DNA of 64,000 nucleotides from Oscillospiraceae bacterium (GTDB lineage Bacteria; Bacillota; Clostridia; Oscillospirales; UBA929). Below are positions 13,782 to 32,048 of the stretch, in pieces. A program made the position numbers and the translations under genes. The DNA is taken from assembly GCA_009777475.1 (NCBI GenBank), contig WRLU01000004.1, forward strand, positions 8,582 through 72,581, written 5' to 3'. How positions within the stretch are numbered: position 1 is the first letter of the stretch; every line of letters begins with the position of its first letter. Below the pieces are notes generated by a model. The model was given only the letters and a program-made list of their open reading frames with translations, did no database searches and was not told the DNA's origin.

Positions 13782-15443
13782 CTAAGCTGTTTCCGTTTTA
13801 GACTCTGACTCAAGTCCTAACAGGGATATTGACTGCTCGCGCAACAGAAACTTTTGGATTTTTCCGCTTGCGGTAAGAGGGAATGAGTCGGTAAACAGCA
13901 CATGGCTCGGAACCTTATGCTTGGCTAAGCTTTTGTTGACATATCCCTTGATGTCATTTTCGTCAGCTTCTGCCCCATCCTTCAGTATGACAAAAGCGCA
14001 GGCCTCTTCGCCGTATCTTTTAGAAGGTATAGCAACAACGGCCACATCCTTTACGGCCTCATGGGTATATATGAAATCCTCTATTTCTTTTGGAAAGAGG
14101 TTTTCCCCGCCCCGGATAATCATATCTTTAATGCGTCCGGTTATTTTGTAGTAACCATCTGCATCAACGGTGGCAAGGTCGCCTGTATGCAGCCAGCCGT
14201 CGCTGTCTATCGCCGATTTTGTGGCTTCAGGCAACTTGTAGTAGCCCTTCATCACGTTATAGCCCCTTACACAAAACTCGCCGGCAACCCCAGAGGGAGC
14301 CTCCCTGCCTGTTTCAGGATCAATAATTTTTGTTTCCATAAACGGCAAAGTCTTTCCAACGGTGTGGACACGCTTTTCCAAACTGTCATCTACAGTCGTT
14401 TGAGTGCATACGGGCGAAGCTTCAGTCTGGCCGAAGGCTATAGTTATCTCCTTCATGTTCATTTTGTCAACAACATCCTGCATGACCTTGATTGGGCATG
14501 GCGAACCCGCCATAATACCGGTGCGAAGGGTTGAGTAGTCATACTTGCTAAAATCACGGTGTTCTAAAATCCCTATAAACATAGTAGGGACACCGTGTAC
14601 TGCCGTACACCTTTCGTACTCAACAACATGCATGACCTTCATTGGGGTATACCAAAGCAATGGGAGCATAGTGCTGCCGTGTGTTACGCAGGCCATAATT
14701 GCCAAAACCATTCCGAAGCAATGGAAGAACGGTACCGGTATACATAGACGGTCATTTTCAGTGAATTTCATGCAATCGCCGATGGAAAGCCCATTGTTCA
14801 CTATATTCTTATGGGTCAGCATAACACCCTTGGGGAAACCGGTGGTGCCGGATGTGTACTGCATATTTATAACATCATCGGGATCAAGGCTTGCTTTTCT
14901 TTTTTTGTATTCAGTTGAGGAAACAAGCACGCCGAAATTTTCAATATCGTTCCAGTGATACATTCCCTTGTAGTGATTATCAAAAGACACAACTATTTTA
15001 AGCTCCGGCAATTTATCTGACAACAACGCCCCTTTTTTGCAGTTTTTGAGTTCGGGGCAAATGGAGTAAAGTGCTTTTTCACAGTCTATATCCTTCAGTC
15101 CGTCACAGATAAACAGGGCTTTGCTGTCAGACTGCTTGAGCAAAAATTCCAGTTCCTGTTCCTTGTAGTTGGTGTTGACCGTTACTAAAACAACGCCTAT
15201 TTTTGCCGTGGCAAACATAAGAACCAGCCACTGCGGATAATTAGTCGCCCAAACTGCCGCATGGTCGCCCTTTTGAAGACCCATCCCCATAAGGCCCTTG
15301 GCAATGCGGTCAACTTTGTTGTTAAATTCATACCATGTCTTGTCAAACTCCATTTCAATGTACTTAACTGCCTGATGGGTAGGGAATTTTTGCGCGGTTT
15401 CCTCCAATGCCTCTCCGATAGTAATTTTTCTCGGTTCATTCAT
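13782..15443 (-). CDS. AMP-dependent acyl-CoA synthetase/ligase (FadD-like)
   Basis: AMP-binding motifs YTSGTTGFPKGV, GQTE, TGDLATVDADGYYKITGRIKD. Its start overlaps the MFS stop (ATGA). Confidence 0.85.
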   Translation of the reverse strand: MNEPRKITIGEALEETAQKFPTHQAVKYIEMEFDKTWYEFNNKVDRIAKGLMGMGLQKGDHAAVWATNYPQWLVLMFATAKIGVVLVTVNTNYKEQELEFLLKQSDSKALFICDGLKDIDCEKALYSICPELKNCKKGALLSDKLPELKIVVSFDNHYKGMYHWNDIENFGVLVSSTEYKKRKASLDPDDVINMQYTSGTTGFPKGVMLTHKNIVNNGLSIGDCMKFTENDRLCIPVPFFHCFGMVLAIMACVTHGSTMLPLLWYTPMKVMHVVEYERCTAVHGVPTMFIGILEHRDFSKYDYSTLRTGIMAGSPCPIKVMQDVVDKMNMKEITIAFGQTEASPVCTQTTVDDSLEKRVHTVGKTLPFMETKIIDPETGREAPSGVAGEFCVRGYNVMKGYYKLPEATKSAIDSDGWLHTGDLATVDADGYYKITGRIKDMIIRGGENLFPKEIEDFIYTHEAVKDVAVVAIPSKRYGEEACAFVILKDGAEADENDIKGYVNKSLAKHKVPSHVLFTDSFPLTASGKIQKFLLREQSISLLGLESESKTETA

Positions 15444-16753
15444 GATTGCACCTCCGAATTATTTTTCTGCCCGGCATTAGCCGCGGCACGTTCACGCTTG
15501 GACATTCCTTTTAAGATAAGCATCATAATAATCCCTGCACCGGCACAGCAGGATGCGATTACAAAAGCCGGAAACATCAGGCTTATGTCCTGGGCTTTGT
15601 CGGCAATATCCTTGTAATAGCCGCTGATTTGCGATGAAAGAATCGCTCCTGAGCCAAATCCCAAAAGTACAAAGCCATAGTTTGTCGCCATATGCTTTGC
15701 CCCAAACAGGTCGGCGGTCAGCGATGGGAATGTAGACAGCAGCCCTCCATAGAAGAAGCCTATGAACGCGATCAGGACAAAAATCCAAATTCCTGGCACA
15801 ACGGTAACAAACAGTGGCAGGACAGCTCCGCCGGACAGCAGTATTATGATGGTGTTTTTTCTCCCGATTCTATCGGAAATCACGCCCCAAATCAAGCGCC
15901 CGAGGGAATTAAACATGGAAACAGCCAAAACTCCCCAGTAGGCAATGTTATCAGCAAGCCCTTTGTCCAGAGCGATAGGCTTTGCAAAGCCTATCATCAT
16001 TAGTCCGCCCATACATGCCAGTATGAAGGTGACAACAATGAGATAAAATTTTGTGCTTTTTAGCATTTCAGAAGGGGTATACTCCATCACCGATTTTACC
16101 ATGCTTGATTTGGCTGATGAAGCAACGGCAGCGGAGGCAAATCCTTCGGGGGGATTTTTCATAAAAAGGCTTCCTATAGTGCATACGAACAGGAAAATTC
16201 CGCTGAGTATCAGGAAGGTTTTTTGCTCCCCTGTGCCGGTGCCGCCGAAAGTCTTGATCAACTTTTCTATTACAGGGGTAAACACCACACCGCCAAAGCC
16301 AAGTGCTGATACGATGATGCCTGTGACAAGCCCTTTTTTGTGAGGGTACCATTTCTGGGCACAGGCAATTGTTGTAGAATATGTAAAGCCCATGCCGACC
16401 CCTCCCATCAATCCGTATGTCACCCATAGTGACCATGAGGTATTTGCCGTTACAAAAGAGGCCAAGAAAAATCCGGCACTTAGTATGATGCCGCCGATGA
16501 AAACAACGAACCGGGTGGAATACTTAGCGGCGAGTTTGCCTCCGAATACGCTCCCAATAGTTAGCGTGGCGAGCAAGAGGGAAAAAGTGAGCTGGGCTTT
16601 GGCGTTGTCCTTGTCAAAGATGCTTTGCGCGATGCCGTTTTGGAATAAGCTCCAAAGGTAGGCAATGCCGAGGGTTAGCTGGATTGCGATTGCTGCGATG
16701 ACCGGGTAGATTCCTGTTTTTTTCGCGGGATAGCTTTTTGCTTGGGATTTCAT
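15440..16753 (-). CDS. MFS transporter (oxalate/formate antiporter-like family)
   Basis: 12-TM MFS profile. ATG at 16753 is preceded by AAGAGGAGG. The ORF-track start at 16798 lies inside the upstream hairpin. Confidence 0.8.
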   Translation of the reverse strand: MKSQAKSYPAKKTGIYPVIAAIAIQLTLGIAYLWSLFQNGIAQSIFDKDNAKAQLTFSLLLATLTIGSVFGGKLAAKYSTRFVVFIGGIILSAGFFLASFVTANTSWSLWVTYGLMGGVGMGFTYSTTIACAQKWYPHKKGLVTGIIVSALGFGGVVFTPVIEKLIKTFGGTGTGEQKTFLILSGIFLFVCTIGSLFMKNPPEGFASAAVASSAKSSMVKSVMEYTPSEMLKSTKFYLIVVTFILACMGGLMMIGFAKPIALDKGLADNIAYWGVLAVSMFNSLGRLIWGVISDRIGRKNTIIILLSGGAVLPLFVTVVPGIWIFVLIAFIGFFYGGLLSTFPSLTADLFGAKHMATNYGFVLLGFGSGAILSSQISGYYKDIADKAQDISLMFPAFVIASCCAGAGIIMMLILKGMSKRERAAANAGQKNNSEVQS

Positions 16754-16771
16754 GGGGTATTCCTCCTCTTT

Positions 16772-16819
16772 GGCAAAAGAAAAACACACCTGCCGCATCC
16801 TTACCGGTTGCTGCAGGTG
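16772..16819 (-). terminator. terminator-like hairpin between the sORF and the MFS gene (possible attenuator)
   Basis: Minus strand: CACCTGC (16819-16813), 19-nt loop, GCAGGTG (16793-16787), followed by TGTTTTTCTTTT. Lies about 20 nt upstream of the MFS RBS. Confidence 0.45.
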
Positions 16820-16838: not shown

Positions 16839-16961
16839 TTACACTTTCAGCGCAACGCATCGAACAACCGGGCAACCGATAATAATAAGCAGACCAAGGA
16901 GCGAAGCCGGAAGGGCTTCGTTAATAAATAGGTTGCTTATCAAACGATTGCGATTGCTCAT
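16839..16961 (-). CDS. 40-codon small ORF (MSNRNRLISNLFINEALPASLLGLLIIIGCPVVRCVALKV), leader peptide or small membrane protein
   Basis: Too short for the ORF track. ATG at 16961 lies 6 nt after GGAGG (16972-16968) and directly downstream of a consensus promoter. Basic N-terminus and hydrophobic C-terminal half. Confidence 0.4.
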   Translation of the reverse strand: MSNRNRLISNLFINEALPASLLGLLIIIGCPVVRCVALKV

Positions 16962-16990: not shown

Positions 16991-17019
16991 ATTATACACA
17001 GCTGACACGGCACTGTCAA
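16991..17019 (-). promoter_or_regulatory. perfect-consensus SigA promoter
   Basis: Minus strand: TTGACA (17019-17014), exactly 17 nt, TATAAT (16996-16991). Confidence 0.7.
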
Positions 17020-17225
17020 GAGAAATTTAAAAATTTTTTTTCTCTCCCCGGGTGAAAGCACAGCCACCGCCCCTATGAAGGGGAAATGATAGCCTACCGG
17101 GTGAGCTTCCTGTAAACTGTTGGTGAAGGACTAACAAGCACAGGAAGCAGCCGATGAGCCAGCTAGAGCATAGCACAGCGGCAAGAAAGAGGGCACCCTC
17201 CCCGGCTTAAATCCATGGGCAGGAC

Positions 17226-17621
17226 CTAAATTACACCTGTTCTGTTCACCACAATCCATTTGCTTATATAATTCTTCACCCGGTTGCGGAGAACACTGGG
17301 CAGTATAGGCTTGGTCACAACATCAATCGCACCTAAAGTCAAGGCGTGAGACAACACATCCTCATCATTCCAGGAGGTTAAAAGCAAAATCGGAATCGTT
17401 TCCCATTCAGGGTTCCCCATTAATTTCTTCATTGCGTCAAGGCCGCTGATGTCAGGCATTTCAATATCAAGCAGGATCATGTCAGGTTTTGTCTTTTCGA
17501 GCATTTGGAACATCTTTTCAGCTGTTGGCATAGTAAGGACCCGATACTCCGACTCCAGTGCCAATGCCGCGGCCGTAAGGTTTGAATCATTGTCATCCAC
17601 GATAAAAATCAATTTTTGCAT
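17226..17621 (-). CDS. single-domain response regulator (receiver only, CheY-like)
   Basis: IFIVDDND...DMILLDIEMPDISG...VVTKP receiver signature. No output domain. AAGGAGAGG RBS. Confidence 0.85.
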   Translation of the reverse strand: MQKLIFIVDDNDSNLTAAALALESEYRVLTMPTAEKMFQMLEKTKPDMILLDIEMPDISGLDAMKKLMGNPEWETIPILLLTSWNDEDVLSHALTLGAIDVVTKPILPSVLRNRVKNYISKWIVVNRTGVI

Positions 17622-17731
17622 ATTGAACCTCTCCTTTTAAATTTGTGATTTTAGTGTTTTTAGGGATTATCCTTCCGCAGGAGGCATTGATAACCCTGCT
17701 TTTCATAGATTGCAGGGACACATTATAAGAA

Positions 17732-18514
17732 TTACAAAGTTCTAATCAGGCGAAGTGCTTTGTAATCCCTCAAATGCAAAGCTACTTTTTGCCTCAACAC
17801 CTCCTCGTCAATTGGTTTTACAAGAAAATCGTTCGCTCCAACTCCGAGTGCCACCGATACATGGTCAACTGTACCCTCGCTTGTCAGGAAAACAATCGGA
17901 GTTTCTTCATGTGCCGGAATTCTGCGTATGATCGGAACTAGTTCAAATCCGCTCAACACAGGCATTTTACAGTCCATCAAGAACAAATCCGGCGTTATAA
18001 CCTCTAAAAGCTTTTTCAGCTTTTCCGGCTCGGACATTGTATACACGCGATACATATCATGCAGGGCATAATTTATTGTCTGTAAAATACTAGGTGAATC
18101 ATCGACCGCCAAAATCATTGGCTTAGGGGATTCATGCCCTACAGGGTCAAGCTGGTGTTCAATGGTTTTAATGAGCTCCTCTGTAGAATAAGGCTTGAAT
18201 ACCATATCCGCCGCTCCGCTGTTCAGACCTTTTATAACACTTTCCTTATCCCTTTTGCCTGTTAGAAATATAACAGGTATATCGACAAAGCGAGTACTTG
18301 ACTTTAGCTTTTCTATGATATAATATCCGTCCTGATATGGCATATTTATATCTAGCAGTATTAAATCCGGCATGACCCCATTAAGTATTTCAAATAGTTT
18401 CTCTGCCGTTTGCGCCGGATACACCTCGTAATGACTTTTAAGCCTGTCCTTAGTCGATAGAAGGTGTAGGTTAATGTCGTCAACCAAAATAATTTTCCTG
18501 CGATTTCCTTCCAT
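17732..18514 (-). CDS. tandem-receiver response regulator (REC-REC, no output domain)
   Basis: Two complete receiver domains (ILVDD...DLILLDINMP...VFKP and ILAVDD...DLFLMDCKMP...LVKP). ATG at 18514 lies 2 nt after the kinase stop codon. The longer ORF-track start overlaps the kinase gene. Confidence 0.85.
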   Translation of the reverse strand: MEGNRRKIILVDDINLHLLSTKDRLKSHYEVYPAQTAEKLFEILNGVMPDLILLDINMPYQDGYYIIEKLKSSTRFVDIPVIFLTGKRDKESVIKGLNSGAADMVFKPYSTEELIKTIEHQLDPVGHESPKPMILAVDDSPSILQTINYALHDMYRVYTMSEPEKLKKLLEVITPDLFLMDCKMPVLSGFELVPIIRRIPAHEETPIVFLTSEGTVDHVSVALGVGANDFLVKPIDEEVLRQKVALHLRDYKALRLIRTL

Positions 18515-18516
18515 AA

Positions 18517-21500
18517 TTATTCCCCCTTGTTTTCTGTTAGCTTTTCTGCAATTTGCGAAAAGTTTACCAAATCTACATTGTCTTGAAGCCATTGCACCAA
18601 ACCGTTGTCAGACTGATACGCATACTTATTTATATCCTTCATTGCCGCATCAACACCATCCATATCATAGACCTGGCAGGCGGCAAGCAATCTTGACAGC
18701 AAGCCGGGATCCGGCTTGTCCTTTCGCGGCTTGGATTCCACGGCGGCGATATTTTTGAGCAGGCTGTCAATATCCGTGATAAAGGCCTTGAGCCTTTCAA
18801 CAAAGGCCGGATTGCGCTTTCTTATCAAGTCGAGCTTGCCTTCCTTGGCGGCACCCTCAAGTTTTTTGGCAAGCTCCCCTATTTCATCGGCAAAAATATC
18901 AAAGCTCATGCCCTTGATGCCATGAACTGATATTTCATAAGCCCGCAAGCTGCTTTCGTCCACATTTTCCAGCGTTTCCATTGCAGCCCCCGCTCCCGCC
19001 AGGTATGACCGCAGGATCTTTAGATAAATTTCCTCATCACCGTCAAACTTATTTAGGCCCTTGGCTAAATCAATCCCATCAATTTTTGTGTTTTTTATCT
19101 GCATACAGCTACCGGCGATTCTTTCTGCCAGCTTCCCGGCAGCAATCCCCGCCTCTTCAAAATCACTGTGCAATGCCATCTCCTTAATTTTGCCTAATTC
19201 CTCGCGGGTTTCCTTGGAGCATTCTTTAATTTCACTTAAAAGCTCCAGCACACCCTTCCTGTCAAATGCGGCACAAAGCTCTTGCAGTACTCCCAGCTTC
19301 TCTGATAATCCTGCACAGTCAGTTCCGTTAACATAGTCCGTGCGAATATCTTTTTCAACAGCCTCAAGCAATCGGTGCAGCCTCTCTAAAAACTCGGGGC
19401 CGAATCCATTTATTGTTGCCTTGTTTTCATCCCTTCCGGCTGTTTCCAGCTTGTATGCAAGCTCAGACATCTCCTCCTGCCCTATGTTGCCCAATGAGCT
19501 TTTGATGCCATGAACATTCACCACAAAGCTCCTCATGCCCTCTTGTGTTTCAATTTTGCCGTTTTGGAAAAAATCTTCTAAAACTGAAACTGTTTTGTGT
19601 GCATCACGAATAAACGATTCTATCAGGAGATGATCGGCTTTAAGCGGCCCCGCGGACGATTTGACCGGGCGGCTGCGGCTCCTTGCCTCCTCAATGACCT
19701 CTGCTGTCTGCTTGTCCCGCACAAAACGGTTTAAAACGGCATTCAGCTGACGCACGTCTATCGGCTTGGATATGAAGGCATCAAATCCGTTTTGAAGGAA
19801 TATATCCGCCTGCCCTGCCACAGCATTGGCAGTCAGGGCGACAATGGGCAGGGTGTAGCCCATTTCGCGCAGGATCTTTGCTGCCTCAATGCCATCCATC
19901 TCAGGCATCATGTGATCCATGAAGATAATGTCATACGCAGTGCCGTGCCTGACCCTGTCAATCGATTCCTGCCCGCTCATAACCGAGTCTATTTTCAAAC
20001 CGTAGGGCTTTAGCAATCCGCCTGCCACATACAGATTTGTTTCCACATCGTCAACCAGCAGCACGCTGCCGTAGGGCATGGGGTCGCGCACAATCTGGGA
20101 GCGTTTTTTATCGACAATCTGGGTTAGCTTGAAGTTCCGCAGGCTCTCGGCAAGCTCCCTGCCCATTACCGCAGAGCCTACAGCCTTTTGTGGCAGCCGC
20201 ACAACAAACAGCGTACCATCGCCTACATTGCTTTCGGCATGAATTGTTCCGTCCATCAGGCCAACCAAGCTTTGGGTTATGGCAAGACCCAGGCCTGTAC
20301 CCTGTACTGTTTTGCACTCTTCGCGGTAAAACCTGGAGTATTCGTCAAACATACGGCTCACCTGATCCTGGGTCATTCCATACCCGGTATCGCGCACCGT
20401 CAAAACCATTGTTATCCAATCATCGGACATTGGCTCGAAGGTAACGGAAAGCGTGACCTTGCCGGCTGCCGTATACTTAAAGGCGTTTGACAGAAGATTG
20501 TTGAGTATCTGCTTAATCCTCAGCTCATCGCCGATGAGCTTTTCGGGAAGATTTTCGTCAATTTGAAGCTCAAACTCTATATGCTTATCGCCGATTCTCA
20601 TTATATTGAGCTGTGTGGTATCGTTAATCAGGCTGGCGGAGGTATATTCATCAGATAATATGTCAAGCTTGCCCGCCTCTATTTTGGAAAAGTCTAGAAT
20701 GTCATTAATTATGCCAAGCAGCAAATCGCATGAATTGTATATGCGTTCCAGCCCTTCCAGTATCTCAGGCGGAAGGTTGTCGTTCTCCACTAAAATTGCG
20801 ATAATGCCCCATATGGCGTTCATGGGTGTGCGTATCTCGTGGCTCATGTTTGCCAAAAAGGTGCTCTTTGCCTGGCTGGCGGCTTCACTTTCCGCCTGCT
20901 GCTTCATTATCTGCTCCAGCCTGAGCATGCTGTTACGTATGCCATCAACCGAATCGTTTATGCGCGACTGATCACCTGGGAACCGGCGCAGGGGGGCATC
21001 ATGCATCCCATTCACAATACAGGAAATGCAATCAAGCGTTTCATCAATGGATGAACTATAATGCTCCAGAATAGAATTAACCACATTTGCCGCTGCCGCA
21101 AATGAGCCCAAATACTTTGAAGCGTCAATCCTGACCATGTTATCGCCGTCAGCACTGAAGGCACAGGCGGTGCTGTGCACATCCCGGACAAACATGTTGA
21201 CGATATTGGTTACACCAAAAAATGACTTGTATAAAACTGCTATTTCAGTGTCTATTTCAGTGTCTATTTCAGTGTCTATTTCAGTGTCTATTTCAGTGTC
21301 TATTTCAGTGTCTATTTCAGTGTCTATTTCAGTGTCTATTTCAGTGTCTATTTCAGTGTCTATTTCAGTGTCAAAATTTCCAATTGAGATATTATTTGCC
21401 ACATTAGCAAGAGCTGCCATCGGCTTGGAAATTGAATTTGAAATAACTGTCGACAATATTGCCGATGCTATGGCCACAAAAATAGATGTGGCTACCAGGA

Positions 21501-22113
21501 GCAGCAGCAAAAAGTAGGAAGCCTTTTCGGCATCAGCCTGCTTGTCCTTCATATTGTCAGTTACCATGTCGATCATTTCGACCAGCCCGCTGATGAGCGG
21601 GTTCATAACTGTCATTGCTTTGTAAATCTCCGCTTTTGCCTCAGCCTGTGATATCTCGTTCTCCTTCATAAGCTGGGCAAACGGCACCAGATGCTCCTCG
21701 TTGTAGGCCTGCGCCCCGGAAATCATGCCGTCAATTCTTTCTATGTGTTCTTGATACATGTCCCGGTCAATTATTTTGTCCCTGTGCAAATTTTCCTTTG
21801 CCTCATTCATTTTTGAAACAAAGTCATCCATGGCCGACAGTGCCATTTCAAGACGGTCATCCAATGCCCGCGGATTCCCGGCAAGCAGTGCCATAAAAAG
21901 AAAGTCGCGCCTCGCCGACATAATCTGGTATTTTGCCTCGGCATAATAAGAAAACCGGGCGGTGGGATGCTCAATAACATAAGAAAATATATTTCTAGTA
22001 TTAATCAAAGCTATAATTCCAACAGCCGCCACTATTGTACTCAGTGCAAACACAATGGAAAACGCAATGCGTAGCATTTGCTTAATCTTCATATTTCTTA
22101 TTTTTTTCCGCAC
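18517..22113 (-). CDS. hybrid sensor histidine kinase: 2 TM, helical extracytoplasmic domain, HAMP (with DTEI x11 insert), HisKA, HATPase_c, REC, 2 x Hpt
   Basis: H-box FLANMSHEIRTPMNAI. N/G boxes (NLLSNAFKYT, DTGYGM, GTGLGL). Receiver IIFMDHMMPEMDG. Two Hpt motifs (VHGIKSSLGNIG and VHGIKGMSFDIF). GTG start 10 nt after GGGAGG. Confidence 0.9.
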   Translation of the reverse strand: MRKKIRNMKIKQMLRIAFSIVFALSTIVAAVGIIALINTRNIFSYVIEHPTARFSYYAEAKYQIMSARRDFLFMALLAGNPRALDDRLEMALSAMDDFVSKMNEAKENLHRDKIIDRDMYQEHIERIDGMISGAQAYNEEHLVPFAQLMKENEISQAEAKAEIYKAMTVMNPLISGLVEMIDMVTDNMKDKQADAEKASYFLLLLLVATSIFVAIASAILSTVISNSISKPMAALANVANNISIGNFDTEIDTEIDTEIDTEIDTEIDTEIDTEIDTEIDTEIDTEIDTEIAVLYKSFFGVTNIVNMFVRDVHSTACAFSADGDNMVRIDASKYLGSFAAAANVVNSILEHYSSSIDETLDCISCIVNGMHDAPLRRFPGDQSRINDSVDGIRNSMLRLEQIMKQQAESEAASQAKSTFLANMSHEIRTPMNAIWGIIAILVENDNLPPEILEGLERIYNSCDLLLGIINDILDFSKIEAGKLDILSDEYTSASLINDTTQLNIMRIGDKHIEFELQIDENLPEKLIGDELRIKQILNNLLSNAFKYTAAGKVTLSVTFEPMSDDWITMVLTVRDTGYGMTQDQVSRMFDEYSRFYREECKTVQGTGLGLAITQSLVGLMDGTIHAESNVGDGTLFVVRLPQKAVGSAVMGRELAESLRNFKLTQIVDKKRSQIVRDPMPYGSVLLVDDVETNLYVAGGLLKPYGLKIDSVMSGQESIDRVRHGTAYDIIFMDHMMPEMDGIEAAKILREMGYTLPIVALTANAVAGQADIFLQNGFDAFISKPIDVRQLNAVLNRFVRDKQTAEVIEEARSRSRPVKSSAGPLKADHLLIESFIRDAHKTVSVLEDFFQNGKIETQEGMRSFVVNVHGIKSSLGNIGQEEMSELAYKLETAGRDENKATINGFGPEFLERLHRLLEAVEKDIRTDYVNGTDCAGLSEKLGVLQELCAAFDRKGVLELLSEIKECSKETREELGKIKEMALHSDFEEAGIAAGKLAERIAGSCMQIKNTKIDGIDLAKGLNKFDGDEEIYLKILRSYLAGAGAAMETLENVDESSLRAYEISVHGIKGMSFDIFADEIGELAKKLEGAAKEGKLDLIRKRNPAFVERLKAFITDIDSLLKNIAAVESKPRKDKPDPGLLSRLLAACQVYDMDGVDAAMKDINKYAYQSDNGLVQWLQDNVDLVNFSQIAEKLTENKGE
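19453..20870 (-). repeat. paralogous high-identity segment, copy A (kinase core, REC and first Hpt of the 1198-aa kinase)
   Basis: Collinear with 23685-25102 at a constant offset of 4232 nt. Contains perfect runs, for example 75 nt at 19708-19782 = 23940-24014, and about 113 nt near 20025-20140 with one mismatch. Confidence 0.9.
21241..21372 (-). repeat. perfect tandem repeat, 11 copies of a 12-nt unit (plus strand tatttcagtgtc; minus strand GACACTGAAATA = Asp-Thr-Glu-Ile)
   Basis: Direct reading: 21241-21372 is exactly 11 identical units with no substitution, in frame with the kinase, encoding (DTEI)11. Confidence 0.98.
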
Positions 22114-22177
22114 TCCTTTTCAGCCTCCCTTCTCTATATCTGCCCGCGGGCATAGAACCGTATACCTCCGGATCCAT

Positions 22178-23329
22178 CTAATACTTATGCGTTAACGCCT
22201 TCAGCTCCTCCATCCAGTCATAATCGTCAAAAACGCCTTCCTCCACTCCCCAGCCATCCACTACCTTCCCGATATTTGTCATGTTGGTTGAGTAGTCAAG
22301 CTTAGAGGTCTCCACAAGCTGTGCATCAAGGTAATATGTATCGGGCGATTCCTCACCGGCAAATTTCATGGCAAGCAGCCTCATGTTTGATTTGCCGATC
22401 AGGCTGGGGTCTACTGCCGCCGTGGAGACCCATATGTCCTGATTGGTACGCATTAGCTCCATATCGTTGTCGGAAATATCAATCGACATAATTTTAATGT
22501 CCCGCCGTCCGGCCTCCAGAAGGGCATCAAGGCAACCCTTGGCAAGCTCGTCATAATTTCCCCATATAGCATCAACCGAACCCTCTGGAATTTTTTTAAG
22601 CAACTTGCCAAACGCCTTTTTAGCACTTGCGCGGGGCTGGGAGCCGTCCGTCAGATCAATCGCATGAGCCTCTTCAATTTTCCCCTCCCTTACATATCTG
22701 TCAAACACAGTTTTGCGGTTATCAAGGGGGAGTATGTCAGGACTCATATGGGTGCGCACAACCCTGACCGGCGAGTGGTCGAAATAATCAGTAATAGCAT
22801 TAAGCGACAATTCCGCCAGCTTGAAGTCCTCCTGGGCAGTGCTTGTGACCCCGGGCAGGAGCTCAGTGCCAATGTTGTCATTTTTATAGGGGGTTGAGTC
22901 AAATGTCACTACCTTTATGCCCTTTTCAATTGCGGGAAGAAGCGCATCGTATGCATATCCGCTAACATGCGAGAGGATAATGCCGTCATAATCGCCGGCA
23001 ATAGCCTGGGCTATATATTCCCTGCACAGGCCGTTGTCTCCGTTGGTGATAAAGGTATCCACCTCAAATCCAAGGGAAACCCCCTCGACAATACAGCCGG
23101 AAAGAAACAGCTTGGTATGGTCGGAATTAGAGAGGTTGCGGATAACCGCTACCTTAACGGCACCGTCCTCCATCTGGCCGGGCATTACACGGCGTAATAC
23201 ATCTGCAGCCTGGGCGGGGCGGGTCGAATTTATTTCCTCGGGTACAGGGGAAACGCCGGAGGGTGTACACCGTGAGGAGGATAAGACAAGCATACTCACG
23301 GCAACTAAAAATAAGACCATTTTTTTCAT
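22178..23329 (-). CDS. periplasmic-binding-protein type I (sugar/LacI-type) lipoprotein, no adjacent permease
   Basis: Signal peptide with Cys (VLSSSRC). PBP1 fold pattern (KVAVIRNLSNSDH..., GIILSHVSG..., IKVVTFDS). ATG at 23329 lies 9 nt after AAGGAG. Confidence 0.8.
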   Translation of the reverse strand: MKKMVLFLVAVSMLVLSSSRCTPSGVSPVPEEINSTRPAQAADVLRRVMPGQMEDGAVKVAVIRNLSNSDHTKLFLSGCIVEGVSLGFEVDTFITNGDNGLCREYIAQAIAGDYDGIILSHVSGYAYDALLPAIEKGIKVVTFDSTPYKNDNIGTELLPGVTSTAQEDFKLAELSLNAITDYFDHSPVRVVRTHMSPDILPLDNRKTVFDRYVREGKIEEAHAIDLTDGSQPRASAKKAFGKLLKKIPEGSVDAIWGNYDELAKGCLDALLEAGRRDIKIMSIDISDNDMELMRTNQDIWVSTAAVDPSLIGKSNMRLLAMKFAGEESPDTYYLDAQLVETSKLDYSTNMTNIGKVVDGWGVEEGVFDDYDWMEELKALTHKY

Positions 23330-23342
23330 CAAATCATTCTCC

Positions 23343-25763
23343 TTACTTCAGCCTTTCCATCAGGCATTCAGCCGCAATCCCTGCCTCTTCAAACTCACTA
23401 TGTATCACAAGATCTTTAATCCTGTCAAGCCCTTCTCTCGTTTCCCTGGAGCATTCCTTTATGCCGCTTAAAAGCCCTAATACGCCTTTTCTGTCATAAT
23501 CGGCACACAGCCCCTGAAGCTTAGTCAATGCCGCCTTCAATTCCTCACCATCGGTACCATCGGCGTGTTCCGGGTGAATTTCCTTTTCATACTCCTCGCA
23601 AATCCGGCGCAGCATCTCAAAAAAATCCGGGCCGGATTCATTTATTGTCATTAAATCCACATTGCGTCCTGCCAGCTCTAGTTTATATGCAAGCTCAGAC
23701 ATCTCCTCCTGCCCTATGTTGCCCAATGAGCTTTTGATGCCGTGAACAGCCACAACAAAGCCCTTCAAGCCGTCCTCCGTTTCAATCCCGATGTTTTGGA
23801 ACAGATTTTCTAACAACGTAATTGTTTTTCGTGCATCGCGTACAAATGATTCTATAAGGAGCGGGGCGAAATCGGTTTGCCCTCCGCTTGCCTTGCCGGG
23901 ATGGCTCCGGCTCCGCGCCCTCTCAATGACCTCCGGCGGCTGCTTGTCCCGCACAAAACGGTTTAAAACGGCATTCAGCTGACGCACGTCTATCGGCTTG
24001 GATATGAAGGCATCGAAGCCATTTTGTAAAAACAAATCTGCCTGCCCTGCCACGGCATTGGCAGTCAGGGCGACAATGGGCAGGGTGTAGCCCATTTCGC
24101 GCAGTATTTCGGTTACCTCAATGCCATCCATCTCAGGCATCATGTGATCCATGAAAATAATGTCATATTCCTCTCCGCCCCTGACCTTTTCAATAGAGGC
24201 CTTCCCGCTCATAACCGAATCTATTTTCAATCCGTAAGGCTTAAGCAACCCATTTGCCACATACAGATTTGTTTCCACATCGTCAACCAGCAGCACGCTG
24301 CCGTAGGGCATTGGGTCGCGCACAATCTGGGAGCGTTTTTTATCGACAATCTGGGTTAGCTTGAAGTTACGCAGGCTTTCGGCAAGCTCTGGTCCAAGAA
24401 TTTCAGGACCTACAAGCTTTTGGGGCAATTGCACCTCAAACAGCGTTCCTTCTCCCTGTTTGCTCTCGACTTGAATTGTTCCGTCCATCAGGCCAACCAA
24501 GCTTTGGGTTATGGCAAGCCCCAGGCCTGTCCCCTCGACTGTTTTGAACTCCTCGCGATAAAATCTAGAATATTCGTCAAACACGCTCTCAACTTGTTTG
24601 TCTGTCATTCCGTATCCGGTATCGCGTACTCTCAAAACCAGTGTCGCCCACCCCTCTGATGGAATGGCTGAGGCAATGGAAAGCGTGACCTTGCCAGCTG
24701 CCGTATACTTGAAGGCGTTTGACAGAAGATTGTTGAGTATCTGCTTGATCCTCAGCTCATCGCCGATGAGCTTTTCGGGAAGATTTTCGTCAATTTGAAG
24801 CTCGAACTTTATCTGTTTATCACCTATTCTCATCATGTTAAGCTGTACTGTATCGTTAATCAGGCTGGCGGCAGGGTACAATGTAGGCACAATATCCATT
24901 TTACCTGCCTCTATTTTAGAAAAATCAAGAATGTCATTGATTATGCCAAGCAGTAAATCGCATGAATTATACACACGGACCAAGGCATCCAGTGTCCCTC
25001 TGGGAAGCGTTTCATCCTGTATCAGCATCTCGGTAATTCCCAATATGGCGTTCATGGGTGTGCGTATCTCGTGGCTCATGTTTGCCAAAAAGGTGCTCTT
25101 TGACTTATTAGCAATCTCAGCGGCATCATGTGCCTTACGGAGCTTATAGCCGGATATGACCAATGCGGCCAAATCGGCAAGGGAGGCGGCAAAGCTTTGC
25201 TCAATTATAGTCCATTCGCGTTCTTCGGGATATTTTTCACATCTATTCTGTTCGACACAGACAACCCCAACCATCTTATCCCCTATGCGAATGGGTGCGT
25301 CCAGCAGGGCACACAAATCTGGGTCATAGTCTTCAAGCAGACTGGATAATATGTCTGATTTTCTGATGTTGTTGGTGACAACTAAGCGTTCATTTTCGAG
25401 CATAGCTGCGTATTTTTCGCGACAACTAAGGCTAAAGTCTTCCTTAACGGTGAATTCATCATCGTAAATATCATATGAGGAAATGTTTTTTAGTGTTGAC
25501 CGGTCATCGGTTATCTGCCATATGCTGATACCCCGCACACCCAGAGCCTTGCAGCCGTTTAATGCGATCAAATTGGCGGGAGCCACCAAATCCCCTGTCG
25601 ACATTATGTTTGAACGAGTAATTTCAGCTAATGTGCCTGAGAGCTTATCTGCGTATTCATAATCGGCAAGCCGCCCGGACAAATCTTTTTTTGACTTGAT
25701 TCTAATGTAGCACAATATGGAGGTAGCAACAAGGATCAAGGTTATAATCAACGCATATTTCAC
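23343..25763 (-). CDS. hybrid sensor histidine kinase: 1 TM, GAF-like domain, HisKA, HATPase_c, REC, Hpt
   Basis: The H-box, N/G boxes, receiver and Hpt (VHGIKSSLGNIG) are nearly identical to those of the downstream kinase. The N-terminal 220 aa are different (single TM plus GAF-like region IRIGDKMVGVVCVEQ). GTG start after GAGGGAG. Confidence 0.9.
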   Translation of the reverse strand: MKYALIITLILVATSILCYIRIKSKKDLSGRLADYEYADKLSGTLAEITRSNIMSTGDLVAPANLIALNGCKALGVRGISIWQITDDRSTLKNISSYDIYDDEFTVKEDFSLSCREKYAAMLENERLVVTNNIRKSDILSSLLEDYDPDLCALLDAPIRIGDKMVGVVCVEQNRCEKYPEEREWTIIEQSFAASLADLAALVISGYKLRKAHDAAEIANKSKSTFLANMSHEIRTPMNAILGITEMLIQDETLPRGTLDALVRVYNSCDLLLGIINDILDFSKIEAGKMDIVPTLYPAASLINDTVQLNMMRIGDKQIKFELQIDENLPEKLIGDELRIKQILNNLLSNAFKYTAAGKVTLSIASAIPSEGWATLVLRVRDTGYGMTDKQVESVFDEYSRFYREEFKTVEGTGLGLAITQSLVGLMDGTIQVESKQGEGTLFEVQLPQKLVGPEILGPELAESLRNFKLTQIVDKKRSQIVRDPMPYGSVLLVDDVETNLYVANGLLKPYGLKIDSVMSGKASIEKVRGGEEYDIIFMDHMMPEMDGIEVTEILREMGYTLPIVALTANAVAGQADLFLQNGFDAFISKPIDVRQLNAVLNRFVRDKQPPEVIERARSRSHPGKASGGQTDFAPLLIESFVRDARKTITLLENLFQNIGIETEDGLKGFVVAVHGIKSSLGNIGQEEMSELAYKLELAGRNVDLMTINESGPDFFEMLRRICEEYEKEIHPEHADGTDGEELKAALTKLQGLCADYDRKGVLGLLSGIKECSRETREGLDRIKDLVIHSEFEEAGIAAECLMERLK
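23685..25102 (-). repeat. paralogous high-identity segment, copy B (806-aa kinase)
   Basis: See copy A. Mosaic of perfect runs and diverged patches. Confidence 0.9.
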
Positions 25764-25844
25764 GCAAACATCTCCCTCTTATGCACAGGATTTCCCTCAA
25801 GCGGATACCACAAGACAACACTCCGATTCTTCGATTCCTTCACC

Positions 25845-25872
25845 ATTATACACGTTTACAGAAAAAATTCAA
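25845..25872 (-). promoter_or_regulatory. SigA-type promoter candidate of the kinase operon
   Basis: Minus strand: TTGAAT (25872-25867), 16-nt spacer, TATAAT (25850-25845). Lies about 80 nt upstream of the GTG at 25763. Confidence 0.5.
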
Positions 25873-26194
25873 GCCCCCTTAGCCGTGTGCCACGGCAATT
25901 TAGTTTTGTAATTTTTGCAGTTCTCAATGTAGAGGATGCCGTCCTCGGCATCCTGCAAACCCGCATTGCACCGTTCTGGAGCGGTAGGTTGATGGCGGCG
26001 TACCCTACAAACGGTTACGAAACTAAATCGCCGTGGCCGTGTGCTGACAAAAAACCGCAGAAACACCCTGCCGTCCTGTTGGTTTGCCCCAAAGCGGCGG
26101 GGCGATTATTAGATATTTATTTCGCCGGACACGCCAGGACCGCCGGGGGATGGGCGGCGACAGGCGATGGGGACGGGCTATGCTGCTTGTCTAA

Positions 26195-29100
26195 TTAGGC
26201 TTCCTCGGAAAATGCTCCGGAAATCATCAGCTTAATCCTGTTTAACTGATTTACTTCACTGGCTCCCGGGTCATAGTCGATAGGCACTATATTGGATTGA
26301 GGGAAAAGTTCGCGGAGCTTACGAAGCATTCCCTTGCCGGTGACATGGTTTGGCAGGCAGGCAAAGGGCTGGACACATATGATGTTAGGCACTCCGTTTT
26401 CAATAAGCTCCACCATTTCTCCGGTCAAAAGCCAGCCCTCGCCACATTGGTTGGCAACGCTTAACACCTCGCTTGCCTTTTCGGCGATCACTCCGATAGG
26501 TGCCTCAGGGATAAAACGGAGAGAGTTTTTTAGGTGCTTTTTCACTGTGTTTTCATACTGGTACACAAGCCTGATGATAAGCCCCATAATACGCGCGGTC
26601 TTTCCCGAGGTTCCCAAAATCTCGTGCTTAACAATGTCGTTCATAAAGCAGTACTGCAAAAAACCCAGCAAGCCCGGTATAACCGCTTCGCAGCCCTCCT
26701 CTTCAATTACTGTTACGGCATTGTTGTTGGCATCCGGGTGAAATTTTACTAAAATTTCACCAACCAGACCCACTCTAGGCTTACGCGGAATATCCAATAA
26801 CGGAAGCTCTTCAAAGTCAGCTATAATGCCCTGTGCCATAGCCGCGAACCTCATTGGCGCAACACCTGAAAATGATTCAGTACAGCGGTCAAGCCATATG
26901 CGGTACAGCCCATTTGCTGAGCCGGGGCTTTTTTCATATGGGCGGACACGAAGCAAAACGCTTTGCAAAAGGTCGCCGATTATTAAGCATTTTAGTGTTG
27001 CATCAATGAGAGCCGGAGTGAATTTGAATCCCGGGTTCTTCTCAATTCCCCCAACGCTTAAAGACACTATGGGAATGTGGGGCATACCCGCCTCCCTCAG
27101 GGCGCGGCGCATGAGGGCAACGTAGTTTGTGGCCCGACAGCCGCCTCCCGTCTGGGTTAGAAAAATTGAGATGTTGTCAGTGTCATATTTCCCGGAAAGC
27201 ACGGCACGCATGAGTTGCCCTATCACAACAATTGTGGGATAGCAGGCATCGTTATTGACAAATTTCAACCCTGCATCAATATCGGCGTGCTCTACCTCCT
27301 TCAAGATATTCACGCTATATCCGGCTCGCTGTAAGGCTGCCTCTACCAGTTCAAAATGCACAGGTGACATCTGAGGAGCCAAAATAGTGTGCTTCCCCTT
27401 CATTTTCTTAGTGAATTCAGCTCGTTTGTACACATAACCGTTGTGCGTTCCAATGAGTGCGTCCTTAGCCTTGCGGCTTGAGAGCGAAGCGGCCAATGAT
27501 CGCATGCGAATCCGCGCCGCCCCAAGCGATGATGTTTCATCCATCTTCAGTACAGTATAAACTTTTCCGGCTGCACTTAATATTTCTTGCACCTGATCCG
27601 TTGATATGGCATCAAGCCCGCAGCCGAAGGAATTAATTTGCACCAGCTGCAAATTAGGCTCACCGGCAACCGTGTTTGCCGCATCATAAAGCCGGGTGTG
27701 GTACATCCACTGGTCAAACACCCGCAAAGGACGTTGTGCCGGGGACAGCTCCGCGATTGAATCCTCTGTCAGAACGGCAAAACCCAGCGAGGAAATCATC
27801 CTTGGCAGTCCGTGATGTATTTCGGGGTCGATATGATACGGTCTGCCAGCTAAAACAATTCCGGTTTTGCCATTTTCCCTGAGCCATGTCAAAACCTCAC
27901 TCCCGCGTTTGGCTTGATGAGCGAAAAAAGTCCGCATTTCATCGAATCCGGCATTCAGTGCTGCCTTAATCTTAGCGCGGGGGATATTCCACCGGGATAG
28001 TGCTTCCGTCAGCGTGTCAGCCATTTTATCCCTGTGCTGCAAAGATAAAAAAGGCTTCAGGAATATAATATTATTTTGGGTTAAAATATCCATATTTGCG
28101 TGTATAACCTCGGGATATGACTGTACGATAGGGCAGTTGAAGTAATTGTTTGCTGCTTTGTTTTCCTTGCGTTCATAAACCACGCATGGGTAGAAAATTG
28201 AATCTATGCCCTGCTTCACTAAGTCGTGAATATGCCCATGAACCAGCTTGGCGGGATAGCAAATGCTTTCAGAGGGTATAGTTGACATTGCCTGCTCAAA
28301 GACCGAATGGTCGGAATGGCGGGATAACACCACCGAAAATCCCAATTCTGTGAAAAAAGTATGCCACAGTGGGTAATTTTCATAGATATTCAACGCTCTC
28401 GGCAATCCGATTTTGCCGTAAGGGGCGTTTTTTTCGTCTAGTGAAGAGTATGAAAATAGCTTTTCATATTTTTCCTCTACTAAATTAGGCAACCCGGAGT
28501 TTTCGGGCTTACCTTCCCCTTTCTCACAGCGAAAACCGCTTAACAGCCTACGCTTGCCTGAAAATTCGGAAACCGTTAGTTTACAGGCGTTAGCACAGCC
28601 TGTGCAGACAACAGTCTGCACCTTTTGAGGCAGTATGCCAGAAAGCTCCTTTTTTGCAAGCACTGCTGAGCGTGAACCCGGCCGATAATCGTCCATAGCA
28701 AGCAGGGCGGCACCATACGCACCCATCAGCCCTGCAATATCAGGGCGTATAACATGTCTCCCGGCGACAAGCTCAAACGCCCTTAATATGGCATTATTCA
28801 AAAACGTACCACCCTGAACCAATACTGTTTTACCCATTTGCTCCGGGCTTTGAAGCTTTATTACCTTGAAGAGCGAATTGCGTACCACCGAATAACTCAA
28901 CCCGCAGGAAATATCGCCTACCCCCGCACCTTCCTTTTGAGCCTGTTTAACCCTGGAGTTCATAAAGACGGTACAGCGGGTGCCTAAATCCACCGGATGC
29001 TCAGATTCCAGAGCCTTTTGGGCGAAACTGTCGGTAGAGAGTCCTAATGTTTCGGCAAACGAGCTGATAAATGACCCGCAGCCGGAGGAGCAGGCTTCAT

Positions 29101-30672: not shown

Positions 30673-31542
30673 TTGCCTGATGTGTACAGCGATGCAATCG
30701 GCAGACTTTCAGATGATATACGGCTTTTAGCAGAGGAAATCAGGTTGCGGGCGGGGCAGTTTTTATCAATCGCACACCAAGGCGGGGAGGAGGAGCTTTT
30801 TACGCATTTACGCCCTGTGACGGCACATGATCTGACCCTAACCATGGAAAACGCGACAAAGGGGAGCTTACACAGTGCGATAGAGTCTATCCAGAGAGGG
30901 TTTGTTACCATTGAAGGCGGGCATCGGCTGGCTATTTGCGGGCGGGCATTGCTGAAGGATGGCGTACTTTCCCATGTGAGGGATATTTCCTCGGTTTGCA
31001 TACGCATAGCACGTGAAAAAAAGGGAGTCGCACGGTCTGTCCTGCCAAAGCTGATTGAGGGAGGACGGATACAAGGTACACTGATTTTGTCTCCGCCGGG
31101 AGTTGGGAAAACTACCTTGCTAAGAGATATTATTCGTATGCTGTCGTGTGGCGAGGCTGTTGCTCCCCACAGAGTTTCGGTCGCGGATGAAAGGGGGGAG
31201 CTGGCAGGGTGCTTGGGCGGCATACCTCAGATGGATGTAGGCCCCCGCACCGATGTCTGGTCGGGGATGCCCAAGTCAGAAGCGGCGGTTATGATGTTGC
31301 GCGGTTGCTCCCCGCAAGTGCTGGCATTAGATGAGATTACCGCACCGCAGGATGCGGCGGCGGCCCAAATGTCATTCGGGTGCGGAGCGGCTGTGCTTGC
31401 CACCGCCCACGCCAGGTGCGTTGAGGATTTGCGCCGCCGTCCGCTGTACCGTTCGTTACCCGGGATTTTCACGCGGGCGGCTGTGATTTCATTGGAGAAT
31501 GGGAAGAGAAAATATGGGGTATCAAATTTTGAAGGAGGTTGA
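30673..31542 (+). CDS. spoIIIAA: stage III sporulation protein AA (AAA-type ATPase)
   Basis: EEIRLRAGQ motif and Walker A SPPGVGKTT. First gene of an AA-AH series. The start is uncertain. The TTG at 30673 has no RBS, while a strong GAGGGAGG (30606-30613) sits 8 nt before an in-frame CTG at 30622. Confidence 0.85.
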   Translation: MPDVYSDAIGRLSDDIRLLAEEIRLRAGQFLSIAHQGGEEELFTHLRPVTAHDLTLTMENATKGSLHSAIESIQRGFVTIEGGHRLAICGRALLKDGVLSHVRDISSVCIRIAREKKGVARSVLPKLIEGGRIQGTLILSPPGVGKTTLLRDIIRMLSCGEAVAPHRVSVADERGELAGCLGGIPQMDVGPRTDVWSGMPKSEAAVMMLRGCSPQVLALDEITAPQDAAAAQMSFGCGAAVLATAHARCVEDLRRRPLYRSLPGIFTRAAVISLENGKRKYGVSNFEGG

Positions 31543-31547
31543 CTACT

Positions 31548-32048
31548 GTGATCCAAACAGTGATAGGCGGATTGTGCTTGGCAGGCGGCTGTGCCGGGTT
31601 AGGCTGGGCGGTATTTGTGCATCTGGAGTCACGGGTGCGATTGCTTACCGCTTTTGTTGAGCTGTGCGACAGATTGAGCGGGGAGCTTGGTTTTAGGCAA
31701 ACCCCTTTGCCCGAGCTGGGGAAACGCCTGGGCAATCCGGTGCTACGAAGATTTTGGGGATTTATAGAGGACAAGCTGGGGCCGTGCGGCGGTAAAACCT
31801 ATTCCGAGGCATGGAAAATGGCATCATCGGAGCTTGACCTTGACAGCATTGACAAGTCATTAATTTCCGAGATAGGCGATATTTTGGGCCAATATGATGC
31901 GGAAAGCCAAATTAAGGCCCTAAAGGTACTTCGCGGACAGTTGAATATTTCACTCAATCAAGCACGTGAAAAAAGAGAAAATCAGGGAAAAATGGCGGGG
32001 ATGCTCGGGGTATTGTGCGGGGTACTTTTAGTGATTATTTTACTGTAA
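31548..32048 (+). CDS. spoIIIAB: stage III sporulation protein AB
   Basis: Position and size match. N-terminal TM helix. GTG at 31548 lies 9 nt after GGAGG. The ORF-track TTG at 31539 abuts the RBS. Confidence 0.8.
   Translation: MIQTVIGGLCLAGGCAGLGWAVFVHLESRVRLLTAFVELCDRLSGELGFRQTPLPELGKRLGNPVLRRFWGFIEDKLGPCGGKTYSEAWKMASSELDLDSIDKSLISEIGDILGQYDAESQIKALKVLRGQLNISLNQAREKRENQGKMAGMLGVLCGVLLVIILL

Follow-up and report, generated by a model that had tools for sequence, protein, structure and literature searches.

The 64,000-nucleotide stretch of contig WRLU01000004.1 that we analysed (Oscillospiraceae bacterium, assembly GCA_009777475.1; called the window below) carries an operon of five genes, which encode two hybrid histidine kinases (HK1 and HK2), a sugar-type periplasmic binding protein (PBP) and two proteins built of receiver (REC) domains, RR2 with two and RR1 with one. 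We propose, with a probability of roughly 0.55, that this operon encodes a binding-protein-dependent, two-sensor, multi-step phosphorelay. The proposal is carried by the anatomy of the genes and their domains, the family to which the PBP belongs, the conserved adjacency of PBP and kinase genes in related loci, the domain fusions found there and the close similarity of the two kinase cores.

Five genes with the domains of a relay

All five genes lie on the minus strand in the same direction and span 17226-25763 behind a single promoter-like site. The intergenic gaps measure ~10, 64, 2 and 110 nucleotides (nt; HK1-PBP, PBP-HK2, HK2-RR2 and RR2-RR1, respectively), so that the positions of the open reading frames (ORFs) bear out the five co-directional genes with gaps of 2-110 nt listed in an initial annotation of this stretch. 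A terminator-like hairpin of the upstream gene (26071..26057) precedes the promoter-like site of the operon, and the gene downstream has a perfect TTGACA-17-TATAAT promoter of its own (17019..16991), therefore we regard the five genes as a discrete unit. HK1 starts with GTG at 25763, with the ribosome-binding site (RBS) AGAGGGAGA ahead of it, and the PBP has 383 amino acids (aa) in the protein collection's call, which starts from ATG 23329. For RR2 we take ATG 18514, which follows a GGGGGA RBS and lies 2 nt past the HK2 stop, as the start; this gives 260 aa, as does the call of the Joint Genome Institute (JGI), while a longer listed ORF (18592..17732) overlaps HK2. The region 3' of RR1 (17020..17230, minus strand) is predicted to adopt a long closed fold (minimum free energy -77.3 kcal/mol, z -2.56) ending in A8U5. 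A simple scan found no canonical terminator there, and Rfam had no match in the operon or in its 3' region, in the latter even at E <= 1; the structured region is possibly a terminator of unusual form or an RNA of an unknown kind. The G+C content of the operon (46.5%) matches that of the window (47.7%), which gives no compositional sign of recent transfer, and a foreign origin of the operon is thus unsupported by composition.

Pfam assigns GAF, HisKA, HATPase_c, Response_reg and histidine phosphotransfer (Hpt) domains to HK1 (the Hpt at 24.8 bits against a cut-off of 24.6), and HAMP_N3, HisKA, HATPase_c, Response_reg and Hpt domains to HK2 (the Hpt at 34.7 bits), along with two Response_reg stretches in RR2 and one in RR1. 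By hydropathy HK1 has one transmembrane (TM) segment, at its N-terminus, and HK2 has two (~13-39 and ~197-229), which enclose a domain of ~160 aa. All five receivers retain the DD pair, the acceptor D, the T and the K, and the reading frame of HK2 is unbroken across 1198 codons with all the catalytic motifs kept. A second Hpt domain of HK2 (Hpt2, ~aa 1000-1198) scores under the Pfam threshold (16.4 bits against 24.6, E 0.011). It is nevertheless supported, because it aligns with the Hpt of HK1 (27% identity over 147 aa, E 4e-9), retains the HGIKG phospho-histidine motif and has stand-alone orthologues in two related loci (L005 and L009). Pfam together with this alignment therefore upholds the initial inventory of two transmitter cores, five receivers and three Hpt domains. 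Each Hpt is followed by a helical tail of ~70 aa with the pattern L..L..AC..YD..GV and without a Pfam assignment (HK1 ~740-806, HK2 ~935-1000 and ~1135-1198), which is found also in the Hpt proteins of L005 and L009.

Searches with Pfam and NCBIfam found no DNA-binding or enzymatic domain and no cryptic output domain in the five proteins, nor one in the Hpt2 module or the HK2 N-terminus at E <= 1, so the initial statement that the operon has no recognisable output domain stands. Several candidate orthologies of the kinases were rejected on NCBIfam cut-offs: LuxQ (NF041947, 279-282 bits against 1200, over the transmitter region only, and no match to PF09308), TorS (TIGR02956, 308-310 bits against 676.5; NF008543, 190-197 against 982; in HK2 over residues 400-811 only), BarA and ArcB.

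A binding protein paired with a sensor kinase

Outside transporter operons, the nearest homologues of the PBP (64-70% identity) are found in six loci (L005, L007, L009, L085, L086 and L088). In each of them a hybrid kinase gene follows the PBP gene within a few bases, and the kinase shares the N-terminal sensor-HAMP-HAMP_N3 module of HK2 at 33-48% identity. A neighbour-joining tree groups the kinase-coupled PBPs in one clade, and their loci fall into three G+C groups (38-40%, 47% for the window, and 51-52%); the L009 cassette sits on a metagenome-assembled genome (MAG) labelled Treponema sp. The search for co-occurrence of the cassette elsewhere, suggested in the initial annotation, has thus been run and finds the pair of PBP and kinase in six loci and the trio of GAF kinase, PBP and HAMP kinase in L005, where the GAF region is 43% identical to that of HK1. 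L005 and L007 lie in islands of further hybrid kinases. In the window the PBP gene likewise stands beside a kinase gene without ABC transporter genes, HK2 carries its sensor domain between two TM segments, and the PBP has the sequence of an exported protein. The conserved adjacency of PBP and kinase argues for membership in the described class of solute-binding-protein-dependent sensor kinases (PMC8050422), of which XylFII-LytS, LuxP-LuxQ, TorT-TorS and RbsB-Trg are the closest members. The initial remark that the system could not be matched to a described one was in this respect too strong.

The sensor domain of the window HK2 has no Pfam match, 4HB_MCP_1 included; that model passes its cut-off only in the L009 orthologue (29.2 bits against 27). 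When the HK2 sensor module was compared by HMMER with 1.84 billion representative sequences, five proteins were found with E <= 1e-30, the best of them an L088-type kinase of 760 aa. Two more matches, P0124 and P0129, were checked and are chemoreceptors with a four-helix bundle (4HB) and HAMP domain, and proteins of this type appear to be the closest relatives of the module outside the kinases. A metagenome scan with the alignment of HK2 sensors returned two loci only, identical to L005 and L007, and a homologue search with the sensor, run with one sequence and again with an alignment of four, found none in a collection that possibly lacks HK2 itself. In spirochaete MAGs, genes of the PBP family lie directly beside chemoreceptor genes (L034-L036) or beside genes of dCache-HAMP-PP2C (SpoIIE-type) sensors (L037 and L042), with a STAS protein next in L037. 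Since the family is found next to chemoreceptors and PP2C partner-switch sensors, its recruitment as a co-sensor is recurrent, and with the kinases added one ligand class would thus be wired to several outputs.

What could this ligand be? The PBP matches Peripla_BP_4 at 64 bits, and an N-terminal hydrophobic segment (5-23) with Cys22 marks it as exported. Its lipobox is non-canonical (LSSSRC, against a canonical LSIGC in the orthologues), a small correction to the sugar-type lipoprotein of the initial annotation. The homologues of the PBP number in the hundreds, and 78 loci (71 from a scan of one genome per species, plus earlier contigs) were fetched and classified by context. An ABC ATPase gene lies within 1.5 kb after the PBP gene in 67 of the 78, and most of these 67 also have genes for a permease, a kinase of the APH family and an isomerase of the IF-2B family; a gene for a class II aldolase is often nearby. 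In the two such loci L001 and L004 the kinase exceeds the NCBIfam equivalog cut-off for S-methyl-5-thioribose kinase (426 and 386 bits against 275) and the isomerase that for MtnA (413 and 411 bits against 279); the aldolase of L004 is by score of the fuculose-phosphate type and not an MtnB dehydratase. The arrangement of kinase, isomerase and aldolase has been shown to salvage 5-deoxyribose, with sugar transporters in some clusters that imply uptake of exogenous 5-deoxyribose (PMC6079011), and has been called the dihydroxyacetone phosphate (DHAP) shunt (PMC12632272). In L001 (16271..21191; Clostridia-type) the transporter-mtnK-mtnA operon runs on into microcompartment genes (PTAC, EutN, aldehyde dehydrogenase, RnfC-like and bacterial microcompartment (BMC) shell), which suggests that in that genome the aldehyde product of the shunt may be handled in a microcompartment.

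The PBP of the window is 40-63% identical to the proteins heading the mtnK-mtnA transporter operons. Its best match by sequence in the PDB is 5ULB (E 7e-56), an unassigned sugar ABC-transporter binding protein from Yersinia, and the second best is 4RY8 (phmmer E 9.8e-20), titled '5-methylthioribose transporter solute binding protein TLET_1677'. The same two structures came first in a fold search with the predicted model of the PBP (mean pLDDT 75.9), with 4RY8 at Foldseek rank 2-4 and E ~1e-17. Literature searches found no characterised binding protein for 5-deoxyribose or 5-methylthioribose and no work on 5ULB. When 63 transporter-type proteins were aligned with four sensor-type PBPs, 105 columns were at least 95% conserved in the former, and 89 of them, nearly all of the conserved positions with a polar or aromatic residue among them, are unchanged in each of the latter. 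The remaining 16 are changed in at least one sensor-type PBP, among them Q75L, P201V/L, G235A/D, N288D and N292G/E in all four and L293Y in three of four.

Neither the operon nor the whole window contains genes for an ABC permease or ATPase, mtnK or mtnA. The PBP is therefore a paralogue with a different job and not a transporter component. From these comparisons of sequence and context we conclude that it is probably a paralogue of 5-methylthioribose/5-deoxyribose uptake proteins whose transporter has been lost. For such a paralogue the same or a closely similar ligand would be the most economical assumption, which suggests that the operon may read 5-methylthioribose/5-deoxyribose as an environmental signal. 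This likely ligand class, and the kinship with the binding proteins of 5-methylthioribose/5-deoxyribose transporters, had been overlooked initially.

The nearest non-sensor relatives of the PBP being transporter components, and several known binding-protein-dependent kinases being in control of the uptake of their own ligand (PMC8050422), the operon could also regulate nutrient uptake in the manner of XylFII-LytS-YesN or HptASR, in which case a DNA-binding regulator encoded elsewhere would switch the transporter and DHAP-shunt genes and the REC-only proteins would act as buffers. We consider this unlikely, as the cassettes of the seven kinase-coupled loci all lack a DNA-binding regulator (the OmpR-type regulator of L086 pairs with its own kinase on the opposite strand) and none of these loci adjoins transporter or mtnK/mtnA genes. 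In addition, the combination of hybrid kinases with Hpt domains and the REC-GGDEF and CheA neighbours described below point to second-messenger or behavioural outputs.

Two kinases and the proposed path of the phosphate

The HAMP domain of HK2 contains a feature that the initial annotation missed, the only strong tandem repeat of the window: a 12-nt unit, GACACTGAAATA, present in 11.1 copies, 100% perfect and in frame, so that it encodes (DTEI)11. The corresponding connector of the orthologues, GNLDVNIDIESQDETG, has no repeat and a fixed length exactly equal to three units, therefore the window HK2 has ~32 extra residues (8 units) between the HAMP helices. Along 11.5 kb, the JGI contig L082 of a different assembly shows zero mismatches to the window and differs from it only in having 9 copies of the repeat; the difference between 11 and 9 is either a real length polymorphism or an ambiguity of short-read assembly. 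With a unit length divisible by three, the repeat keeps the reading frame at any copy number, and it could tune, lock or uncouple HK2 signalling. Eight surplus DTEI units (32 aa) in a connector of invariant length, the perfection of the repeat and the differing copy numbers of two otherwise identical assemblies would all fit a decaying or phase-variable HK2 branch, with sensing uncoupled by the repeat and the operon running on HK1 alone or heading for loss. The intact frame of 1198 codons, the preserved catalytic motifs and the unit length divisible by three speak against such decay, and the copy-number difference may be an artefact of short reads; we therefore think it improbable that the HK2 branch is on its way out.

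From HisKA to REC, the cores of HK1 and HK2 are 79% identical (82% at the DNA level), compared to 63-65% for either core against its orthologues in other loci; the corresponding kinase pair of L005 shows 67%. This pattern of identities, together with the orthologous GAF regions, indicates that the duplication which gave HK1 and HK2 is probably old, in which case gene conversion, or else selection for a single set of partners, would have preserved the likeness of the cores. RR1 is 56-58% identical to its counterparts, which in L007 and L009 form a fused C-terminal domain of the HK2 orthologue (...REC-Hpt-REC). Hpt2 is fused to HK2 in the window and encoded in L005 and L009 by a separate, oppositely oriented gene of ~195 aa. 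Fusions of this kind speak for a joint action of HK2, RR1 and Hpt2, and RR1 is a true member of the system. The idea of the initial annotation that a cytoplasmic and an extracytoplasmic input enter one relay gains comparative support from the trio in L005, from the likeness of the cores within each genome and from the RR1 fusions.

Only the C-terminal receiver of RR2 (RR2-C) is conserved in the related loci. The N-terminal half of the RR2 orthologues in the low-G+C loci is a non-receiver domain of ~165 aa without a Pfam match, which could serve for output or docking and have escaped recognition. The residue aligned with Tyr106 of CheY is Val in all four RR1 orthologues, Met in the N-terminal receiver of RR2, Phe in RR2-C and Tyr in the receivers of the REC-GGDEF proteins in L007 and L009. 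Read against the distinction between intermediary and terminal receivers (PMC9981736), these residues suggest a role as shuttle or sink for RR1 and one as terminal receiver for RR2-C. The gene of the REC-GGDEF cyclase lies directly upstream of the RR2 orthologue in both L007 and L009, and in L088 the kinase gene is followed by cheA and cheR. The term effector-less, as applied initially, therefore holds for the window locus and does not extend to the wider system. Three regulators encoded in the window were considered as the output, a MalT/LuxR-type STAND protein (47377..49872), GdpP (49976..52099) and Spo0A (28..633); none is linked to the operon.

The course of L088 into cheA and cheR, the pairing of the PBP family with chemoreceptors (L034-L036) and the likeness of the HK2 sensor module to 4HB-HAMP chemoreceptors could mean that RR1 is a CheY-like protein acting on the flagellar motor or the Che pathway, and that the output is taxis or kinesis towards the sugar. 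However, RR1 has Val and not Tyr at the Y106 position in all four orthologues, its fusion to kinases in two loci is hard to square with a diffusible motor-binding protein, and its best 25 NCBIfam matches include no CheY model, all of which makes a behavioural output of this kind very improbable. Least probable of all is a sporulation-initiation phosphorelay, with the operon proteins in the roles of KinA, Spo0F and Spo0B and phosphate passing to Spo0A: the host is a spore-former, the window is dense in spo genes (spo0A 17 kb away, the spoIIIA operon 5 kb upstream) and RR1 resembles Spo0F in having no aromatic switch residue, but this closeness to spo genes is not operonic, the orthologous cassettes are on low-G+C contigs (one in the MAG labelled Treponema, a non-sporulating genus) with no spo genes among the called genes of the kinase-coupled contigs, and RR1 stays under the equivalog cut-offs (46.7 bits against 200 for the Spo0A model) with no Spo0F among its best 25 matches.

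For the binding-protein-dependent relay that we favour, we infer the course as follows, from the ligand and its docking through each step of phosphotransfer to the output. The secreted PBP would bind a small 5-deoxy-pentose, most likely 5-methylthioribose and/or 5-deoxyribose, and in its loaded form would dock on the helical sensor domain of HK2. Docking would move the HAMP domain and so shift the balance of kinase and phosphatase activity in HK2, as in XylFII-LytS, LuxP-LuxQ, TorT-TorS and RbsB-Trg. HK1 would be the membrane-tethered paralogue, whose cytoplasmic GAF domain adds a second, intracellular input. Since the cores of the two kinases, from the dimerisation and phosphotransfer (DHp) domain through REC to Hpt, are near-identical, HK1 and HK2 can be expected to serve the same partners, and heterodimers are possible. 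Phosphate would travel from His to Asp on the kinase REC, to His on the Hpt and to Asp on RR1 and RR2. RR1 would be an intermediary or a sink and not an allosteric output, because it is fused to kinases in relatives and has no aromatic switch residue, and RR2-C would be the better candidate for terminal acceptor because the switch Phe is kept. Alternatively, the terminal acceptor would be a receiver-effector encoded elsewhere, most plausibly a REC-GGDEF diguanylate cyclase as in the related loci. That the phosphate ends on RR2-C and/or on such an effector, with cyclic di-GMP as the most likely currency, is our best guess and the weakest part of the proposal.

Several points weigh against this proposal. 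The expansion of the connector by 32 aa may have made HK2 unresponsive or fixed it in a single state. The substitutions in the sensor-type PBPs could alter the specificity for the ligand rather than the docking surface, and the high identity of the kinase cores could be due to recent gene conversion and carry no functional meaning. We found only about seven loci with a coupled kinase, of which several come from the same termite-gut-type samples, and the statistics of co-occurrence are thin as a result. The link to GGDEF comes from two loci only, both of one low-G+C lineage, while another relative is tied to CheA/CheR, and in the window neither the operon nor the rest of the 64 kb encodes a GGDEF protein or other effector for it.

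Precedents, surroundings and meaning

LytS, which is not known to be a hybrid kinase or to have an Hpt domain, responds to xylose and signals to the AraC-type DNA-binding regulator YesN. In XylFII-LytS of Clostridium beijerinckii, also a Firmicute, a Peripla_BP_4 protein without a transporter stands beside a kinase, as it does here, and the extracytoplasmic sensor of the kinase is a four-helix-bundle (TarH-like) domain, as we propose for HK2 (PMC8050422). The XylFII structure 5XSS is among the fold matches of the PBP, at a sequence identity of ~16% only. In the autoinducer 2 (AI-2) pathway of Vibrio, LuxU is a separate Hpt protein and the output LuxO is a sigma-54 activator; AI-2 itself derives from the product of the methylthioadenosine/S-adenosylhomocysteine (MTA/SAH) nucleosidase, like the ligand proposed here. 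LuxP-LuxQ-LuxU-LuxO resembles our operon in the combination of a Peripla_BP_4 protein with a hybrid kinase and in its His-Asp-His-Asp relay (PMC8050422), and several Vibrio hybrid kinases converge on one Hpt and receiver (PMC8050422; PMC5394107). It differs in the sensor of LuxQ, which is dCache-like and not a 4HB domain (PMC8050422), and LuxP was not among the sequence matches of the PBP in the PDB search.

TorR is a DNA-binding regulator of the OmpR type. The TorT-TorS-TorR system for trimethylamine N-oxide (TMAO) is like ours in having a binding protein and a hybrid kinase with REC and Hpt in one chain and a periplasmic sensor that is all helical; both kinases have TorS among their best NCBIfam matches, at the 308-310 bits given above, far under the cut-off of 676.5, and the TorS sensor is an HBM-like double bundle (PMC8050422). 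Pentose-type Peripla_BP_4 proteins that act on a 4HB-HAMP receptor, as proposed here, are known from RbsB/MglB-Trg and LsrB-Tsr of E. coli (PMC8050422), but the cytoplasmic part of HK2 is a hybrid kinase and not the signalling domain of a methyl-accepting chemotaxis protein, and RbsB serves a transporter too, whereas the window PBP has no transporter genes alongside. The 5-methylthioribose/5-deoxyribose transporter binding proteins of the 4RY8 type belong to the same family as the PBP, which differs from them in having no permease, ATPase, kinase (APH) or isomerase genes alongside and in falling into the separate kinase-coupled clade, which is marked by the substitutions given above. The Red kinases of Myxococcus xanthus are not known to be hybrid kinases. 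RedCDEF nevertheless is, by composition alone, the closest described precedent for an effector-less set, with two kinase-type proteins, a dual-receiver and a single-receiver protein and no output domain; it comes from a different phylum, and the abstract of the source mentions no binding protein or Hpt (PMC2755868). What is notable in the present system are the ancestry of its co-sensor, the two co-evolving kinases and the HAMP repeat.

The coordinates of these features are collected in the table. The sporulation genes of the window comprise spo0A (cut by the edge), gerM, the spoIIIA operon, spoIIE and yunB, of which the gerM-like gene (Germane domain), spoIIE and yunB were identified by Pfam and spoIIIAA onward were assigned by eye from the translations; this density of sporulation genes makes the host an endospore-forming member of the Bacillota. 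Other genes encode an ECF transporter, infC, a major facilitator superfamily (MFS) transporter, an acyl-CoA synthetase, purL, nusB and thrS. Immediately upstream of the operon, with the terminator-like hairpin in between, a gene on the minus strand (26195..30430) encodes a 1411-aa fusion of two BcrAD/BadFG ATPase domains with DUF2229, of the CoA-enzyme activase type. On the downstream side, a hydrophobic small ORF of 40 codons (16961..16839, minus strand), called as a gene by JGI in L082 as well, follows the TTGACA-17-TATAAT promoter just upstream of the MFS gene (16798..15440) and could encode a leader peptide or a small membrane protein. Beside yunB, a 431-aa protein with collagen triple-helix repeats (60336..61631, minus strand) may be a BclA-type exosporium or spore-surface protein.

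Coordinates of the operon, its elements and related features (window positions unless a locus is named)
Feature	Position	Strand	Description
HK1	25763..23343	-	806 aa; order TM-GAF-HisKA-HATPase_c-REC-Hpt, then helical tail of ~70 aa
PBP	23332..22178	-	384 aa; secreted, probably lipid-anchored, Peripla_BP_4
HK2	22113..18517	-	1198 aa; TM1, ~160-aa helical sensor, TM2, HAMP, HAMP_N3 linker
HK2, C-terminal part			HisKA, HATPase_c, REC, Hpt1 and tail, Hpt2 and tail
RR2 (REC-REC)	18514..17732	-	260 aa
RR1 (REC-only)	17621..17226	-	131 aa
Hpt2 module	18517..19116	-	last ~200 aa of HK2
12-nt repeat	21240..21372	-	GACACTGAAATA, in the HAMP connector of HK2
Promoter-like site	25845..25872	-	TTGAAT-16-TATAAT, 5' of HK1
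Structured 3' region	17020..17225	-	ends A8U5; possible operon terminator
RR2 orthologue, L005	6539..7417		
RR2 orthologue, L007	9087..9968		
RR2 orthologue, L009	874..1770		
Sporulation genes	28..633, 789..2063, 30673..35464, 44999..47347, 61662..62372		

The ligands of most sensor kinases are unknown, and here the ancestry of the binding protein points to a specific class of candidate ligands. The use of S-adenosylmethionine leaves 5-methylthioribose and 5-deoxyribose as by-products, released by the nucleosidase that also yields the AI-2 precursor. A wider and rather doubtful extension of our proposal is that these sugars, once excreted, may serve as a community-level cue in the anaerobic gut, reported by a dedicated PBP clade to phosphorelays (and by related members to chemoreceptors and PP2C modules), merged in this organism with the intracellular GAF signal and possibly tuned by the hypermutable repeat. 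If the prediction of the ligand fails, an ordinary, uncharacterised multi-kinase phosphorelay remains. The locus also offers a natural experiment in three respects: how two kinases with 79% identical cores might keep a single set of partners, which of the receivers act as intermediates, for which the fusions in relatives give a clue, and what changes in length by a 12-nt repeat a HAMP connector can bear. If the ligand class is confirmed, another transporter binding protein would have been re-used as a co-sensor, in a family found beside three kinds of transducer, and 5-methylthioribose and 5-deoxyribose would move from salvaged waste to extracellular signals, in parallel to AI-2.

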